A stretch of DNA of 64,000 bases from Candidatus Aenigmatarchaeota archaeon (GTDB lineage: Archaea; Aenigmatarchaeota; Aenigmatarchaeia; CG10238-14; SpSt-28), in NCBI GenBank assembly GCA_038733315.1, contig JAVYPJ010000001.1, positions 71,863 to 135,862 of the forward strand, given 5' to 3'. A model generated the notes under the pieces. It made no database searches, was not told the DNA's origin, and saw only the letters and a list, made by a program, of their open reading frames with translations. Every line of letters begins with the position of its first letter. Positions within the stretch are counted from its first letter, which is position 1. The translations under genes were made by a program, and so were the position numbers. Shown here piece by piece: positions 3,535 through 63,833 of this stretch.

Positions 3535-4499
3535 CCTCCTTTAATCCGTTATCTAAAAGTTTTTTAAAATTTTCTAAACTATCGTTATTTAGATTTAATC
3601 TTTTTGATAATTTTATTACTTCTTTTTTATTTTCTATTTTTAAGAATTTAAAAACTCCTATTTTGTATTGAAAATTATAAATTAAGTATTTATAATGAAA
3701 ATTTTGAAAAGAAATAGAGTTGAATACTTTATCCAATTTACATTAAATTTCTTCTCTCTTTTTATTAATAAAATAACATAAGAGTAGTTCCATAGTATTA
3801 TCAAAATAGCGAAGCCAAATTTACCTAATTTGAATAAATAATATACAAATTTTTTAATTGCATTAAAGTATTTTGAATATTCAAACCATAAGTATGCATT
3901 TCTATTAAAGAAAAAAGTATTTTTGTTCCAATCTGAGATAATTCTATAGTATTGTAAATAGCTCCTTTTTCTACAGGATTTCCGCATACTATATTTCTAT
4001 GCTTATGTTCTATGAAGTATTTTATAGTATTCAATTCTATATAATTTTTTGAAGAAGATGCCATTACCCAATGAATTAATCCAGTTGGATATGCGACATC
4101 TTTCTTAATTAATCTAAATAGAAATTCTCTAGATTCTTTATTCCTATACTTTCTATAAATTTTATACGCATCATATTTATCATTAATTAATTTTCTTAAA
4201 TCTTTTAGTAATTTCTTGTTTGGAACGTCATCTGCATCTAATTGAAGAATCCAATCGTATTTACATTCATTAATTCCAATTTTATAATAAAAATCTGCTA
4301 TTCCAATAGGAGGTAGCCAAACTACTTTAACTTTCTTATATTTTTTTGATAAATTTTTCATTAACTTTTTTTGATTTTTATCAGTAGAACTATCTATGAT
4401 TACTATTTCATCAACATATGGATAAAGAATTTCTACTTTAGGTTTTACCAATTCATATTCATTTATTGAAAATATTAATGCCGAAATTTTTTTATGCGT
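3503..4499 (-). pseudogene. Disrupted GT2 paralogue of 622-1608
   Basis: Homology to the intact copy runs through three frames (ORFs 3825-4574, 3682-3987, 3503-3736); ACG at the position of the start codon (4497-4499). Confidence 0.8.
4237..4490. repeat. Second copy of the ~254-bp GT2 5' block
   Basis: Near-identical to 1346-1599. Confidence 0.9.
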
Positions 4500-4901
4500 G
4501 AATAAATATAAATAAATACAAATTTTAAAATCGTCACTCCTCAATTCAAAAATAATGTTTAATTGTACTACCAAAACATTCGATATTTACACGAAAAAAA
4601 TTACCCCTTAGACCATAGAGCCTTATAGAAAAGTAATATTATAAAATTATAAAATTATATTTTAAGCATTCAACCAGATTTTATATTTTAGTTTTCCGCA
4701 CAAGCATAAAACACATGTAACATTGACTATCTATTAATCTAGCTAGATGAGACAAATTAATTAAACTAAAATCTTAAACTTGTCATTAGCTATAAGCTTT
4801 AAAACTATTTAAAATATTATTACCAATCTTTCTATTTTTCATCTGAGTTTTAAGAGAAAGAGCTTAAATTTTTAAATATTAAAATTTGACCAGATTAATT
4901 T

Positions 4902-24041: not shown

Positions 24042-25959
24042 CTAAACTTCAATATTTACACTTTTTATTCCAACTAATAATCCGGGACATACGTCTAAAC
24101 AATAAACTTCTATTTTTTTAATTTTCCCCTTAGGTAAATCTTTTAAAGGAATTTCTAAAAAATCTCCAAGCTTAAAAGTTTCATTCAGATTTATATTTCT
24201 TGTTTCTGTTTTGTTATCTTCGTATATTAATTTTAACTGTAATTTTTTACCTAAATCAATACCTAAATTTATTATAGTTAGTTTTATTATTGGAGAGGTT
24301 TCTTCGGTCTGTAGGGAAATTGTTGGTTCTGGAGATGAATATTTAAATGGTAATACTATGCTAATACTTTCAGATGTATAATATCCTCTTTCAAAAACTA
24401 AAATCGGTTTATTTGATGCTATCCTTATTAATCCCCAAGATGTTGTTACAGAATATTCTAATTGCTGTCCTTTATTTATAGCAACATTCGTATATGTTAT
24501 AGCACCCGAAATATTAAATACTGTATTATCTTCAGTTCCAATAATTCTTACATATCTTGAACCCCTACCAACTCTAAAAACAAAATATGTTCCCGCTCCT
24601 TTTCCATTTATACTTGGAATTTGTTCAGAACCATAATTATAATAATTGCCCTCTGTATAAACTAATACAGGCTTATTTGCAACAACCTTCATTCTAACAT
24701 ACTCTGGAGCATTACTTGAAAAACTTGTTATCTGTTGTGTTCTTATATAATCTCCTTCATTTGCTAAAATTCCTGACCAATCTCCTGTAGTTCCTTCCAA
24801 ATTATCTATAATTACATTTGTATTAGGATATAAAGCTGAAACTATTGTATAGCCATGAGAATAAAAGTAATAAATTTGAGTTCCATTTGGATAAGTTCTT
24901 CCATATATAATTGTGTAAATACTATCATCTTCTAAACCAAATTGAGCTGTTACATCATATGTTGCATTTATATAATAAAATCCAGGTGTTAAACTCCCAG
25001 AATACCAGCATTGACCTTCATTTAATGTTCCACTATATACATCTTGTAAATTAGAATTTTGTACTCTAACAAAATTATTATTATCATAGCTACAAATCCA
25101 TAAATGTCTTGGAACTCTAATCCATATTTTGTTTCCATAAATACTTGTTACATCATCATCTGAATCATGATCTGGTCCTATATCATCATAAGTTAAAGAA
25201 ATTGGTTTTGTTGATTTTATATAATAAGGATAATCTGAATTACAAGTATATGATGTAGATTGGAATTTATTTAAAGCTATTGTTTGAACTAATTGCCAAG
25301 TATCACTTCTATATATTGTTATAGTATTTCCATCTTCGTAAGAAACTATTCTAAATGCTGTTCCATTTCCAGTACTAACATTCAAACATGTAGAATAAAA
25401 CTCTGTTCCAATATAATTTGGAGTAATTAAGGAAAAATCTTGTTGAGAGTTAGCATTAGGATTTCCATAATACAAATAAATTATTTTTTGAGAATTAGCA
25501 GGAATGTTTGGTACTTTTACCCAAATTCTCGTATTATTTGTATTACAAGTATTTGGCTCTATCCAATAATTTAGTAAAGTAATTCCATCACTATCTGTAA
25601 ATCTAATATCTCCACAATCACTTCTCATTTTTCCTTGAGAAATCAATTCTTGAGTATTTATTGTTACTAAAATTTGATAATCTTCTAAATTCTCTGAATT
25701 CTGAGTATTATTTATTATTATAGGAATTCTATATTTAAAATCTTTATTAGCATTAAAATCTATTCTTGCCTTTGAACATTCTATAATTGATTTTATTGGA
25801 GAGGTTTCTTCAGTTTTTGTTTCTAAATAAGAAACGTAGCCAGAAAAATAAAGATATAATGTAACTCCAATTCCTATTGTTAAAGCAACTAAAATAACTG
25901 TAGCTACATATACGGAAATTAATTTTTTTAAGCTCGAATTTTTATATATATATATTCAT
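24042..25959 (-). CDS. Type IV pilin-like protein with an inserted DUF2341-like plus IgGFc-binding-N-like cassette; ATG out of frame
   Basis: Frame is open from 25955 to 24042 and encodes KKLISVYVATVILVALTIGIG..., a DUF2341-like head, a passenger and a pilin-like C-terminus; nearest ATG (25959-25957) is shifted by (AT)6. Confidence 0.8.
24288..24305. repeat. 18-bp direct repeat TATTGGAGAGGTTTCTTC (other copy 25794-25811)
   Basis: Both copies encode EETSPI; 1506 bp apart, in frame. Confidence 0.85.
25944..25955. repeat. (AT)6 microsatellite just after the ATG; candidate phase-variation switch
   Basis: Minus strand reads ATG A (AT)6 AAAAATTCG; n=4 or n=7 restores the frame. Confidence 0.75.
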
Positions 25960-59021: not shown

Positions 59022-62000
59022 ATGAAAAAAGAAAAAATTTTTTTGATTTTTCTTTTTTTTACAATTTTTATATTTAACTTTTCTCTATCTTTTTCTCAAA
59101 CCTGGCTTTCTGGTTGGCAATATAGAATTCCAATAACAATTAGAGAAAATTCTGGGAATACTTTAACAGATTACCAAATTTTAGTAACAATAAATACTCA
59201 GAACTTAATTTCTCAAGGAAAAATGAGAAGTGATTGCGGAGATATAAGATTTACTGATAGTGATGGAAGAACTTTATTGAATTATTGGATTGAAGATGGA
59301 TGTAATTCTACTAATACAAAAATTTGGGTAAAAGTACCAAATATTCCTGCTAATTCAAATAAAATAATTTATTTGTATTATGGAAATCCAAATGCTAATT
59401 CGATGAGTAATGGAGATTTGGTTTTTGAATTTTTTGATGATTTTAGAACAAATCCCAATACAAATGGTAAATGGAGAATTTTTAGATACTCAAATGACGT
59501 TAATAACGAGTTCGTATGGGACAACACAAATAATCAAGTGTATCTGACAAGAAATTTAAATGGTAAAGGTGTTATGGCGTTTTTTAATAAATCTTTTTCA
59601 CCATATAATACCATTACAGAATTTGAAATTTATATTGGCGGCGGTAATGGTGCTGACGGATTGTCGTTTTATTTCGATAAAAACATAAATCCATATATAA
59701 CCTATGGAAGAGCACTTGCTGGAGGCAGTATGGCAAGTATGGCCTTCGATGGTTCTAATTCCTATCTTTCTGAAGGATATAGCATAGGATTCGATACTCG
59801 GCGAAACACCGAAAATGGATATGAACAATCTACGCCACATATAGAAGTTGCAAGGACTAGCGCAACAAACCCTAGTGTACATTATTCGGGAGCTCATCTA
59901 ACTTCCGTCTCTTATTCAAACTTAAGAGGAAATTGGTTGAAGGTAGTAGTAATAATAAAATCTAATGCTGTTGAAGTTTATATAAACAACGTTCTACAAC
60001 TCAGTTATACTGGTTTAACATCTCTAAATTATAACTGGCAGGGGATTGGTGCGTCGACTGGCGGGTATAATGACAATCATGCGATAAAAAACTTAAGAGT
60101 TAGAAAATTCGCACCACAAGAGCCAACATATACATTAGGTAGGGAAGAGTCCATCACTTTAGTTCCCGTATGGCTAAGTTATTTTTCTAACGTTTCTCAA
60201 GCTATAATTAATCAGCCGATAAAATTTTCGAGCTTATGGAATGCTTCCCAAATTCCATATTTAACCCAACCTTCTCAAACCTGGCTTTCTGGTTGGCAAT
60301 ATAGAATTCCAATAACAATTAGAGAAAATTCTGGGAATACTTTAACAGATTACCAAATTTTAGTAACAATAAATACTCAGAACTTAATTTCTCAAGGAAA
60401 AATGAGAAGTGATTGCGGAGATATAAGATTTACTGATAGTGATGGAAGAACTTTATTGAATTATTGGATTGAAGATGGATGTAATTCTACTAATACAAAA
60501 ATTTGGGTAAAAGTACCAAATATTCCTGCTAATTCAAATAAAATAATTTATTTGTATTATGGAAATCCAAGTGCTACTTCTATGAGTAATGGAGATAATA
60601 CTTTTATATTTTTTGATGATTTCTCCTTTAGAAACATTTCCAAATGGAATTGGCCTGACAACTGGATTATAGAAAATAACACAGCAAAACAAACAGTAGC
60701 GAATTGGTGGAGTTCCGAGTTGATCTCTCAAAAACTGAATATTGGAATCAGCAATTATGTTGGTATTTGTATAAAAACGTTGGCCATAAACGACGGCACC
60801 GTTCGGGCGTACGATGTTGTAGTCTCAGTTAATATTAGTAATTCGTGGTATAATTCACCGTTCTTTACAACGTCCTATGCATGGTACGGTTTTTTCGATA
60901 GAATATGTTCTGGAAGTGGAAGTTGCCCGTATGGAGAGACTAGGCAATGGAGAGTCTATGATATTATAATATTTACTAATAATCAAACGTGGTATTTGGA
61001 CGGATCTGTTATAGATTCTAGAAATTCAGCCGTAGGTAATATTATTTATAATTTTGCCATAAATTCAAAAGGTGTTAGTAGATTCGATTATTTTATAGTT
61101 AGAAAATGTAGTAGAATAAATCCAATTGTTTCTCTTGGAAGTGAAGAGATACTTTCCTCATCTTCAAGCGTCTTTCTCTCAAACTACATTTTCTCATATA
61201 AATTAGGAAATTCTCAATGGATTAATGAAACCTATAGATTTGGTCCCGTATATCAAACCTGGCTTTCTGGTTGGCAATATAGAATTCCTATAACAATTAG
61301 AGAAAATTCTGGAAATACTTTAACAGATTATCAAATTTTAGTAACGATAAACACTCAGAACTTAATTTCTCAAGGAAAAATGAGAAATGATTGTGGAGAT
61401 ATAAGATTTATAGATAGTGATGGAAGTATTTTATTAAATTATTGGATTGAAAGTGGTTGCAATACAACTAATACAAGAATTTGGGTAAAAGTACCAAATA
61501 TTCCGGCTAATTCTCAAAAAACAATTTATTTGTATTATGGAAATCCAAGTGCTACTTCTATGAGTAATGGAACTAGCACTTTTATATTTTTTGATGATTT
61601 TGAAGATGGTGATTACACTAATAATCCTGTATGGAATATAGATACCGGTCAAAAAATATGTACAAGCTACTGTTGTGGAAGTTATAGTGCTTCTAACAGA
61701 TATTTAGAATTAACATCAGGTTTTTGCTCTTTAAATCTTTATTCAGATTTACCTCAACCGATATCACCACAAAAAATAGCAATAGATTTTAACTCTTGGT
61801 GGACAGGAACACATTGTTATAATAATGAAGTTCTCTTACTAAACTCATCAAACGCTATAATGATTGGTGGTGGCGGTGTTTTATGTGATTATCATTCTAT
61901 AAGAGCCCTAGAGCTTAGAGTAAATAATAATTTTTATTCTAGCAGCTTGGATTTCCCATATGGCACTTGGCATCGTATAACTATTATATTTAATGGAACT

Positions 62001-63149
62001 CATTATACTGTTAGAATGAACGATGTAAATACTTATTCTATTTCTGAAGCAATCTATCCATATCCTATAACGACAATATACATAGGAGGTTGGCAACATT
62101 CTATGGGCGCTAAATTTGATAATATTAGAATTCGCAAATACACTTCACCAGAACCAACAGTTTCCATAGGAAATGAAGAAACTATGCTACCTTTCACAGC
62201 CTGGGCAAATGTTACAAAAAGTTTCTCTCAGCCAGGAACATTGTGTTGGAAATTTTATGCAAACAATACTCTAAATCTATGGAATGTTACGCCAGAAAGT
62301 TGCTTAAATATAATTTCGCCAGATTTTTGGCTAGAAGCTAAACTATTAGATCCTAGAGAAAATAGTATAATAAACCTAATTCCTGGAGAAGGAATTCAAG
62401 TAAAAGCAAATGTAACATTAAGGTCTAACTATTTCTTTTGTACGAATGGAAACGCAACTCTAAGATATAATACTTCGACTTCAATGCTACCAAATACTGC
62501 AATACCAACGTCTTCCGCACCTATAACAACAGATACAAATCCAATATACGTTGGAAATCTATGTGTAAATAATTCTACTCAAGTTGTTTTTAATTTAATA
62601 GCTAACAGTCAAACTTATAAGATAGTAGATGTAAATTTCTGCTTTGAGCAAATATGTAATAATACATTGCGTTTTTTTGTTAACGTTTCTATAACAACAC
62701 CAAGAAACCTAACATTAAAAAAAGGATGGAACTTAATTTCTATACCCTATAAAACTATAAATCTTGATTTGAACAGAGATGGATGTAATTTAAGAGAAAG
62801 GGTATTTCACTATTTTAATGCTTCGTCGAACTCTTGGGAATATCATACCTATAAAAATTTAAGAGGTGGAATAGCATATTGGATTTATAGCGAAAAAAAT
62901 TGTGAATCGGTTTTATATGTTAGTGACGCAGTTACTCCAAACGACATGCCAGGAATAATACGAGGAAAAAAGAATTATATAGGTAGTTTAAGCTCTTCAA
63001 GAAGTCTTCAAGAAATATATACCAACATACGACAACTATGTAATTCTGTCAGTATAGCACGCTGGGATTCCGAAAGAAACGCATTCTTAAATATAGATAT
63101 ATCAAGCAATTTAACTCCTTGGTACGGTTATATCTTAGAATGTTCTTAA
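59022..63149 (+). CDS. Secreted multi-cassette surface protein: three DUF2341-like heads, each with a different lectin-like passenger
   Basis: Signal peptide; three WLSGWQYRIPITI...DIRF...YWIE...WVKVP...YYGNP heads; many N-x-S/T sequons; C-terminal GWNLISIP...YWI domain. Confidence 0.85.
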   Translation: MKKEKIFLIFLFFTIFIFNFSLSFSQTWLSGWQYRIPITIRENSGNTLTDYQILVTINTQNLISQGKMRSDCGDIRFTDSDGRTLLNYWIEDGCNSTNTKIWVKVPNIPANSNKIIYLYYGNPNANSMSNGDLVFEFFDDFRTNPNTNGKWRIFRYSNDVNNEFVWDNTNNQVYLTRNLNGKGVMAFFNKSFSPYNTITEFEIYIGGGNGADGLSFYFDKNINPYITYGRALAGGSMASMAFDGSNSYLSEGYSIGFDTRRNTENGYEQSTPHIEVARTSATNPSVHYSGAHLTSVSYSNLRGNWLKVVVIIKSNAVEVYINNVLQLSYTGLTSLNYNWQGIGASTGGYNDNHAIKNLRVRKFAPQEPTYTLGREESITLVPVWLSYFSNVSQAIINQPIKFSSLWNASQIPYLTQPSQTWLSGWQYRIPITIRENSGNTLTDYQILVTINTQNLISQGKMRSDCGDIRFTDSDGRTLLNYWIEDGCNSTNTKIWVKVPNIPANSNKIIYLYYGNPSATSMSNGDNTFIFFDDFSFRNISKWNWPDNWIIENNTAKQTVANWWSSELISQKLNIGISNYVGICIKTLAINDGTVRAYDVVVSVNISNSWYNSPFFTTSYAWYGFFDRICSGSGSCPYGETRQWRVYDIIIFTNNQTWYLDGSVIDSRNSAVGNIIYNFAINSKGVSRFDYFIVRKCSRINPIVSLGSEEILSSSSSVFLSNYIFSYKLGNSQWINETYRFGPVYQTWLSGWQYRIPITIRENSGNTLTDYQILVTINTQNLISQGKMRNDCGDIRFIDSDGSILLNYWIESGCNTTNTRIWVKVPNIPANSQKTIYLYYGNPSATSMSNGTSTFIFFDDFEDGDYTNNPVWNIDTGQKICTSYCCGSYSASNRYLELTSGFCSLNLYSDLPQPISPQKIAIDFNSWWTGTHCYNNEVLLLNSSNAIMIGGGGVLCDYHSIRALELRVNNNFYSSSLDFPYGTWHRITIIFNGTHYTVRMNDVNTYSISEAIYPYPITTIYIGGWQHSMGAKFDNIRIRKYTSPEPTVSIGNEETMLPFTAWANVTKSFSQPGTLCWKFYANNTLNLWNVTPESCLNIISPDFWLEAKLLDPRENSIINLIPGEGIQVKANVTLRSNYFFCTNGNATLRYNTSTSMLPNTAIPTSSAPITTDTNPIYVGNLCVNNSTQVVFNLIANSQTYKIVDVNFCFEQICNNTLRFFVNVSITTPRNLTLKKGWNLISIPYKTINLDLNRDGCNLRERVFHYFNASSNSWEYHTYKNLRGGIAYWIYSEKNCESVLYVSDAVTPNDMPGIIRGKKNYIGSLSSSRSLQEIYTNIRQLCNSVSIARWDSERNAFLNIDISSNLTPWYGYILECS
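59093..59391. repeat. 299-bp exact repeat, cassette head copy A
   Basis: Identical to 60272-60570. Confidence 0.93.
60272..60570. repeat. Cassette head copy B
   Basis: Identical to copy A; downstream sequence then follows copy C. Confidence 0.93.
61253..61600. repeat. Cassette head copy C (diverged)
   Basis: Scattered substitutions relative to A/B; 3' end matches B. Confidence 0.9.
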
Positions 63150-63556
63150 CTAGCTCTTGGCCTCCAACTAAAAACTATTAATTCTTTATAATATATTTTT
63201 CCATCACTAAAAACTAATTCCGCTTCGCTTGTAGATGGAAATTGTTGAAATGGTTGATTGCATGGGGAAACTCTTATATCTATAGTTACAAAATATCCAA
63301 AATCCCTTAATTTTTCTAATGTCTTAGCAAACTCCTCTGTATTATATTTAAATTCTTCACAATCTTTTGACAAACTCGCTATTTCTAAGAACTTTTCCTT
63401 AATGTTTTTAACTAAAAGAGCGTATTCAGGTATGTATTGAGATGTATCTACATAAAACATTCCTGTAATAGTAAAGTATAGAGCTATTAAAGCGCCTACA
63501 ATTAAAACTGCTGTTAAAGTCATGAACTGTGCTTTATAATATTTGTAATATTGCAT
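63146..63556 (-). CDS. Pilin-like protein with class III signal peptide
   Basis: KA/QF followed by a hydrophobic helix. Confidence 0.6.
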   Translation of the reverse strand: MQYYKYYKAQFMTLTAVLIVGALIALYFTITGMFYVDTSQYIPEYALLVKNIKEKFLEIASLSKDCEEFKYNTEEFAKTLEKLRDFGYFVTIDIRVSPCNQPFQQFPSTSEAELVFSDGKIYYKELIVFSWRPRAS

Positions 63557-63833
63557 GTTTTTGCCCATCTATAATTAAAATGTTCTTTTCACTAATTAAA
63601 CCTTTTTCAATAAGTAAATTTACAACATTTTTTCCAAATGCATTTATAACGTTAAAACTTTCGTTACTTATAAGACTTAGAAGTTCGTTCTGATTAACAG
63701 TTCTTTCGAAATAAAAATCTTTGGAAACTTTTAATTTAACACCCCTATACTCGAATTCTTTATCTATAACATCTATATCGCAAATAGCTAATATTTTTAC
63801 TCCGAATTTTTCATGAATCTTTATACAAAACAT
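63534..63833 (-). CDS. DUF424-family protein
   Basis: LAICD, VSKDFY, INAFG, HA motifs. Confidence 0.85.
   Translation of the reverse strand: MFCIKIHEKFGVKILAICDIDVIDKEFEYRGVKLKVSKDFYFERTVNQNELLSLISNESFNVINAFGKNVVNLLIEKGLISEKNILIIDGQKHAILQIL

Follow-up and report, generated by a model that had tools for sequence, protein, structure and literature searches.

The ORF and Its Three DUF2341 Cassettes

We analyzed a 64,000-nucleotide (nt) stretch of DNA from Candidatus Aenigmatarchaeota archaeon (GCA_038733315.1, contig JAVYPJ010000001.1, positions 71,863–135,862), hereafter called the window (G000:C1:71863-135862), and in it a gene whose product carries an immunoglobulin (Ig)-like domain interrupted by two DUF2341-containing cassettes. 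In the labels used below, G denotes genomes (G000 is the own genome, G001–G005 are from the same genus), C contigs, L loci, P public proteins and X public sequencing runs. The own genome comprises 733 kb and is 94% complete; the runs containing window DNA are hot-spring metagenomes, of which X9–X12, with small shares of it, were left aside. The gene is an open reading frame (ORF) of 1375 amino acids (aa) at 59022–63149 on the forward strand, with a predicted signal peptide, cassette 1, the twice-interrupted Ig-like domain and a C-terminal region in this order. The signal peptide (residues 1–25) was read from the sequence without a prediction tool. The ORF contains 28 N-x-S/T sequons and three stretches assigned by Pfam to DUF2341 (PF10102), which score 106.6, 108.2, and 112.7 bits at a curated cut-off of 23.4.

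All parts of the ORF lie on the forward strand. Cassette 1 (59097–60149, aa 26–376) is N-terminal, outside the Ig-like domain, and consists of a DUF2341 core, a 222-aa payload and a return strand. Spacer 1 (60165–60248, aa 382–409; strands A-B) precedes cassette 2 (60276–61148, aa 419–709), in which the core extends to 60623, the payload has 162 aa and the return strand starts at 61101. Spacer 2 (61170–61244, aa 717–741; strands C-C′) is followed by cassette 3 (61254–62180, aa 745–1053) with a core to 61601, a 180-aa putatively ConA-like payload and a return strand from 62133, and then by spacer 3 (62193–62312, aa 1058–1097; strands E-F-G). Strand names were assigned by analogy to FN3 domains, so that cassette 2 occupies the B-C loop (site A) and cassette 3 the C′-E loop (site B). 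The junction linkers beside the spacers, omitted in an earlier note on this DNA, measure 9 + 7 aa at site A and 3 + 4 aa at site B. The C-terminal region (62313–63149, aa 1098–1375) is conserved in orthologues and matches no Pfam or NCBIfam family.

The Spacers Match One Ig-Like Domain in Consecutive Order

The earlier note had proposed that the three spacers, which share one frame, are parts of a single Ig-like module. We compared them with profile A3, built from 12 uninterrupted copies only, all from other genomes. Spacers 1–3 fell on consecutive, non-overlapping A3 positions (2–29, 31–54, and 57–99). When the cassettes were deleted in silico and the spacers joined in order by script, one contiguous match spanning A3 positions 2–99 was obtained at 47.1 bits, in line with this proposal. 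Single spacers scored 13.2, 8.1, and 19.6 bits, respectively; the five wrong orders gave at most 26.4 bits (best domain) and 500 shuffles at most 6.4 bits.

Contiguous homologues, as predicted by the note, were also found. Profile A1 (9 rows), which represents the contiguous half formed by spacers 1 and 2 in same-genus orthologues, matched 76 of 301 genomes, and in the own genome gave two matches (model positions 2–32 and 30–58) that break exactly at cassette 2. The best-scoring 30 loci listed for A1 comprised one own gene and 29 others. Among the latter, the halves were separated by a cassette in 5 (293–360 aa), by a Hint-like insert in 12 (158–162 aa) and by no gap in 12. These shares are not frequencies, as the first two groups had supplied the rows of A1. 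Profile A3 matched 164 of 371 genomes of the phylum, and 2016 clusters at E ≤ 0.001 in a set of 1.8 billion representative proteins. An intact copy of the domain is present in the own genome itself (C1:53389–53676). No Pfam or NCBIfam family matched the host Ig-like domain.

The junctions of cassette 2 were bridged by public contigs: the left one in two studies (X1, 60180–60301, with 0 differences; X5, 60171–60334), and the right one in three runs of one study (X3 and X4 to 61214, X2 to 61192). The gene layout is therefore not an assembly artefact. Taken together, these results leave us almost certain that one Ig-like domain of about 100 aa is split twice by cassettes.

Structure Models of the Intact and Interrupted Domain

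The intact copy, modeled with a 34-row alignment, gave an all-beta chain folded as a 7-strand sandwich (predicted local distance difference test score, pLDDT, 94.2; predicted template modeling score, pTM, 0.85). Its best structural matches were Ig, FN3-like, and PKD chains (top Z 10.7, root mean square deviation [rmsd] 2.0, 84 residues aligned), and Foldseek also listed beta-sandwiches. The CbhA FN3-like modules (3pdd), an archaeal PKD domain (4xed) and the Tyro3 Ig domain (1rhf) share the 7-strand beta-sandwich (Z 9.8–10.7, rmsd 2.0–2.3), but their identity to the window family is 7–13%. As the top structural rows were tied, no Ig subtype was assigned.

We also modeled the native segment (60162–62312, 717 aa) with a 26-row alignment including 12 intact homologues that span the three spacers. 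The same sandwich was formed, with spacers at pLDDT 73–94 (82/73 for spacer 1, 94/91 for spacer 2, and 78–93 for spacer 3), cores at 79–92 and return strands at 85 and 80. All 50 structural matches listed run from residue 1–17 to residue 716–717 and align 73–96 residues, the top one being a single FN3-like module (3pdd; Z 8.9, rmsd 2.1, 81 aligned); several top chains were common to the searches with the native and the intact model. As spacers 1 and 3 together provide only 68 residues, the fold requires a further piece from the middle, for which spacer 2 is the simplest candidate. Several properties of this model count against it. It is guided, because its alignment already placed intact homologues across the spacers; as a whole it scores poorly (pLDDT 57, pTM 0.35) for want of alignment depth in the payloads; the payloads themselves are unfolded in it (pLDDT < 50); and Foldseek gave no match at E ≤ 0.001.

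The models nevertheless support reassembly of the three spacers into one Ig-like sandwich, the compact fold that the earlier note had expected. With contiguous homologues and a single-domain fold, neither of the outcomes that the note had named as refuting its idea was seen. From the reassembled host domain and the ordered return strands it can be inferred that the N and C termini of a cassette would lie close together. In the FN3 topology the B-C and C′-E loops are found at one pole; if the domain has this topology, sites A and B would be at one pole too.

Occupancy of Sites A and B in Relatives

A search with the C-terminal 322 aa against 61 related genomes gave matches in 17, and 12 regions were compared. 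A scan of metagenomes gave 22 loci, 4 of which are orthologues at 47–51% identity. In G001–G005 spacers 1 and 2 are contiguous, that is, site A is empty, and one cassette stands between spacers 2 and 3 (the G003 contig starts within the gene). Both sites are filled in L125, as in the window gene, while in L126 only site B is; these two loci are 92% identical over 2156 nt, and an insert of about 970 nt at site A is present in L125 only. The reverse state was seen in L124, where spacers 2 and 3 are contiguous and a return strand precedes spacer 2 on a contig that starts within the gene. In L026 (G018:C97) and L123 cassette 1 is joined straight to spacer 3; half of the Ig domain is lost and only strands E-G are kept, as a crossover between the first and the last cassette would give. 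The change at site A between empty and filled alleles may have been a gain or a loss.

Among 150 representative proteins we counted 562 full-length Ig copies and, in 10 proteins, 13 interrupted ones. All 13 breaks fall at model positions 42–63 and none at site A, which makes site B a recurrent entry point. Two of these inserts were inspected; one of them, at 13 bits and with recognizable motifs, represents a diverged DUF2341-like cassette. Insertion at site A thus appears, so far, to be limited to the orthologue group of the window gene. A Hint-like domain of 158–162 aa fills site B in 12 genomes of several families (L038–L049; also L027–L030); its matches to PF14890 (E 1e-4) and TIGR01445 (E 8e-4 to 0.01) are both below the cut-offs. 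The first residue of this insert is Ser and the last Asn, followed by Leu, not by Cys, Ser or Thr (for example L038:892–1659, reverse strand). Four Hint-bearing host genes inspected in full are large, and three start with a helix-turn-helix-like segment as judged by eye. Among the literature matches listed, we found nothing specific on Hint domains in archaeal surface proteins.

Architecture and Distribution of the Cassette

Each cassette comprises a core of about 115 aa, a payload of 160–220 aa and a return strand of about 16 aa; the PF10102 model covers part of the core only. Among the best 120 of 452 cassette-2 homologues listed, a pattern search recovered this layout in 67, with an 85–90-aa core ending in a YYGN motif, a middle segment of 116–258 aa and a conserved return motif; the remaining 53 are partial or were missed by the pattern. 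The middle segments represent unrelated folds (ConA-like, LamG, PA14, and RCC1 repeats in 16 proteins scanned). Sequence patterns show, and model confidence supports, that the cassette is a split domain: the DUF2341 core is followed by a variable payload and then by a return strand packing against this core. The GC content of the payloads is 0.32–0.36 vs. 0.28 for the cores. Payload 3 matches PF06439 over part of its length (29 bits, cut-off 26.8). Not all searches favored binding folds in the payloads: payload 1 matches the legume-lectin family PF03388 below the cut-off (E 0.0046), payload 2 has no Pfam match, and sequence searches of solved structures with cassette 2 and payloads 1 and 3 revealed no solved relative, the matches being designed ankyrin fragments or weak ones.

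PF10102 occurs at 11 places in 5 genes of the own genome and in 16 of 19 genomes of the family. One of its hosts is a pilin-like gene (24042–25952, reverse strand) with a DUF2341 cassette (480 aa) inserted after the first globular strand. Once this cassette had been cut out by script, the two halves of the host aligned with an uninterrupted pilin of 144 aa from the own genome (E 2e-16). An intact, cassette-free orthologue is also present in G005, which bears out the parallel with a pilin drawn in the earlier note. On contig C2, inspected by eye, cassettes are nested in other cassettes. The note had called the cassette a portable plug-in module: its presence in Ig loops, pilins and other cassettes agrees with portability, but it is a split core with a variable payload and not a single module.

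Three further observations concern these hosts. At the start of the pilin-like gene (25959–25935, reverse strand) the nearest ATG and the pilin reading frame are separated by a (TA)n run and do not share a frame, while the C2 paralogues start in frame; the frame break is possibly a slipped-strand on/off switch or an assembly slip. The nested genes G000:C2:180039–184190 (reverse strand) and C2:41469–44225 (forward strand) carry cassettes in DUF2341 cores at up to three different loops, and the same loops hold LamG or propeller-like domains in relatives L101–L103 and L117. Many single-cassette proteins of 300–340 aa (P0171, P0173, P0179, P0197, P0201, and others) have no signal peptide and end in a short basic-hydrophobic tail; they are possibly viral or exported by another route.

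Probable Exchange of Payloads Between Cassettes

Cores 1 and 2 share 97% identity over 351 nt and 100% over 300 nt, and core 3 is 90–92% identical to both. Duplication or gene conversion thus supplied the inserts, and insertion and duplication are no alternatives. The earlier note had read the cassettes as in-frame insertions and not simple tandem duplications; the insertion stands, but duplication is involved as well.

The payloads vary slot by slot among orthologues. Payload 2 shares 58% identity with the payload that G005 carries at site B, and payload 3 shares 97% with one nested on C2 (45–50 of 50 nt per bin across 61550–62149). A public partial protein (P0001), the only match to the C-terminal 322 aa of the window gene in a large protein set, is 97% identical to them, and its slot before spacer 3 holds the other C2 payload at 94% identity. 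In G001 the two cassettes are 97% identical to each other. In addition, unlike sequence runs into spacers 2 and 3 on public contigs, one of which, from run X5, is 17.9 kb long.

No reverse transcriptase (PF00078) was matched in the 94% complete own genome, nor was a tyrosine recombinase (PF00589), other transposase families not having been searched. As to terminal repeats or target duplications, the longest direct matches were 8 and 5 nt, and 44 of 500 random pairs reach 8 nt. The locus does not resemble the target of a diversity-generating retroelement, as PF00078 is missing and whole payloads differ rather than adenine positions. In the light of these results, recombination of the ordinary kind within the cores would be the simplest explanation, and we think it rather likely that payloads are exchanged by recombination between cores. 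Two points count against this: the public contigs are short, mix congeners and permit no phasing, and the swaps are known from metagenome assemblies, in which identical cores can give chimeric joins. Contig depths were considered as a sign of payload polymorphism within one population, but were reduced to weak support, several congener-type junctions being mixed in the runs. A contig joint skipping cassette 2 was not seen among the 15 of 21 joints listed, which carries no weight.

Alternative Explanations

The identity of cores 1 and 2 over 300 nt, the 91% identity of core 3 and the near-identical cassettes of G001 would all be expected if the ORF had arisen by tandem duplication only, leaving three DUF2341 repeats joined by unstructured linkers that resemble an Ig domain by chance. 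The spacers are unrelated as repeats, however, and yet map to consecutive thirds of one profile, are contiguous in orthologues and reassemble in the model. We consider this explanation extremely improbable; as a full account, tandem duplication is refuted by the contiguous orthologues, although duplication is the likely source of the inserted DNA. A cassette moved as a mobile element by a dedicated transposase, recombinase or retroelement would account for a domain that occurs 11 times in 5 genes within 733 kb of genome, and in frame in every instance examined. It is nonetheless very unlikely given that terminal repeats or target duplications do not exceed background, that PF00078 and PF00589 are unmatched (other transposase families were not searched), and that the junction linkers vary between lineages. 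Somewhat less improbable, though still unlikely, is that the payload shuffling, as distinct from the split domain, is an assembly artefact across identical cores. Public contigs do break at every core and all sources are metagenome assemblies; but the payload-spacer junctions are unique sequence that a mis-join inside a core could not create, P0001 has a C2-type payload joined directly to spacer 3, and on the X5 17.9-kb contig an unlike payload leads into spacer 3 and on to the C-terminus.

The most serious alternative, to which we give a minor but real chance, accepts the insertions and holds that the heads are not adhesins but glycan-hydrolase-like or structural domains, which might for instance remodel glycans of the host surface, or neutral cargo in permissive loops. 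The sole payload match above the cut-off, PF06439, is indeed named 3-keto-disaccharide hydrolase, site B also accepts the intein-like Hint domain, as a tolerant site would, and many cassettes stand alone in short proteins. Against it, unrelated folds of binding type (LamG, PA14, RCC1 propeller) occur in the same slot, the cassette is found in pilins as well, and DUF2341 proteins have been proposed, as a hypothesis in the cited passages, as pilus-tip adhesins (PMC4858521). An adhesin with heads predicted from sequence to bind glycans or surfaces remains the probable role. Its attachment to the cell is a weak point, as no C-terminal hydrophobic anchor was seen in the ORF; the C-terminal region is possibly the attachment part.

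Proposed Mechanism and Its Meaning

Overall, we regard it as probable that the gene encodes an Ig/FN3-like stalk domain, two loops of which hold DUF2341 adaptor cassettes that display variable predicted binding heads swapped by recombination. As the sequence shows and the guided model supports, spacers 1–3 supply strands A-B, C-C′, and E-F-G of one domain with cassettes 2 and 3 in its B-C and C′-E loops. The return strand packing on the core, shown by sequence and supported by model confidence, would join the ends of the cassette and make insertion into a loop possible. The payload varies per slot, and near-identical payloads recur across genes and slots. Payloads would then be swapped by homologous recombination or gene conversion within the 300–350-nt cores and the short return-strand sequence. 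The same recombination would add or remove cassettes and at times collapse the array, whereas first entry into a new loop would need a rarer illegitimate event. The secreted protein may serve an ectosymbiotic DPANN cell as a multivalent adhesin. Of its three heads, two would stand at one pole of the Ig domain if the FN3 topology holds.

More tentatively, with chances somewhat below even, DUF2341 could be a genome-wide plug-in adaptor of DPANN surfaces, serving both as a protein graft for binding folds in the loops of Ig domains, pilins and its own copies, and as a DNA homology arm by which heads are swapped. The outcome would be an antibody-like Ig scaffold reshuffled in hot-spring populations to change the host that is gripped. 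The gene bears on how DPANN symbionts recognize and switch their hosts. Its heads of 160–220 aa are precisely delimited and could be expressed separately, and the empty and filled alleles found in nature can serve as controls. A structural role is also suggested for a widespread domain of unknown function. One loop of the unnamed Ig family (2016 clusters) has taken up entire domains repeatedly, and the family could be useful for thermophile display scaffolds.

Comparison With Known Systems

The principle has precedents, as split Ig carriers have been described from bacteria. In the cited passages on the RTX adhesins MpIBP, Vibrio cholerae FrhA and Aeromonas hydrophila AhLap, split Ig-like domains project a ligand-binding module with its termini together, and AhLap provides a nested case in which a beta-roll is followed by vWFA and then by the insert (PMC10865825, PMC12077191). 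The Ig-like domain of the window is likewise discontinuous in sequence with an inserted module. It differs, however, in belonging to an archaeal protein with an N-terminal signal peptide, without an RTX family among its Pfam and NCBIfam matches and without a type I secretion signal. It is opened at two loops, while the RTX accounts, in the passages cited, give one insert per split domain; and the insert is a two-tier cassette repeated genome-wide, with payloads that are probably exchanged. Ligand binding is shown in these accounts for the sugar-binding heads of RTX adhesins, whereas binding by the heads of the window gene is a prediction. By analogy, the window protein would work like the RTX split Ig domains but is no RTX adhesin. 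In the open-access literature searched we found no case of recursive, exchangeable cassettes opening two loops of a single domain. The new features are this double opening, the recursive adaptor, and the observation of every occupancy state.

DUF2341 itself (PF10102; MJ1470, arCOG03508) is described as a presumed pilus-tip adhesin domain in archaeal type IV pilus loci (PMC4858521). In the passages cited from other accounts it appears in a gene found in a transformation screen of Methanococcus maripaludis (PMC10133366), as an appendage of ion transporters (PMC12505986), as a domain of giant Patescibacteria proteins (PMC11809585) and in a gene acquired by hot-spring viruses (PMC11003980). The window gene resembles these DUF2341 proteins in that PF10102 matches all its cores, class III pilin-like proteins also carry the cassette, and its neighbor is pilin-like. 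The pilus-locus context is confined to this adjoining convergent class III signal gene; ATPase- and TadC-like ORFs, recognized by eye, are about 22–25 kb away. Unlike here, a split adaptor with a return strand, nesting and insertion into an Ig loop are not described in the cited portions of these DUF2341 accounts.

The surface proteins of Nanobdella aerobiophila, rich in Ig domains and sequons and carrying ConA-like domains, were proposed to serve in host recognition (10.1101/2023.10.27.564410). The window gene shares with them, as described in that source, the predicted status of a DPANN surface protein, Ig-like folds and many sequons, and it has a putative ConA-like payload; but that text mentions no DUF, and its cited passages describe no split domains or exchange.

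A parallel for the exchange is offered by bacterial antigenic variation. In Neisseria, pilE varies by gene conversion from pilS, the variable segments being flanked by conserved sequence. The window gene is similar in that variable segments between conserved sequence are probably exchanged among loci, but its donors would be intact-looking genes and not silent copies, and whole domains would be exchanged.

Neighboring Genes and Other Features of the Window

On one side the ORF is flanked by a gene that by eye resembles the RFC large subunit, and on the other by a convergent 140-aa gene (63146–63568, reverse strand) in which a script detected a class III (pilin-type) signal motif. In two families, and likewise at metagenome loci L127–L128, a gene of this type stays beside related C-terminal domains. 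The arrangement hints, from sequence, at a link between the unnamed C-terminal domain of the ORF and pili.

Elsewhere in the window, two glycosyltransferase-like genes (622–1608 and 3825–4574, reverse strand) share a 300-nt block that is 94% identical (1268–1567 and 4159–4458). This pair represents another case of a constant part with a variable remainder.

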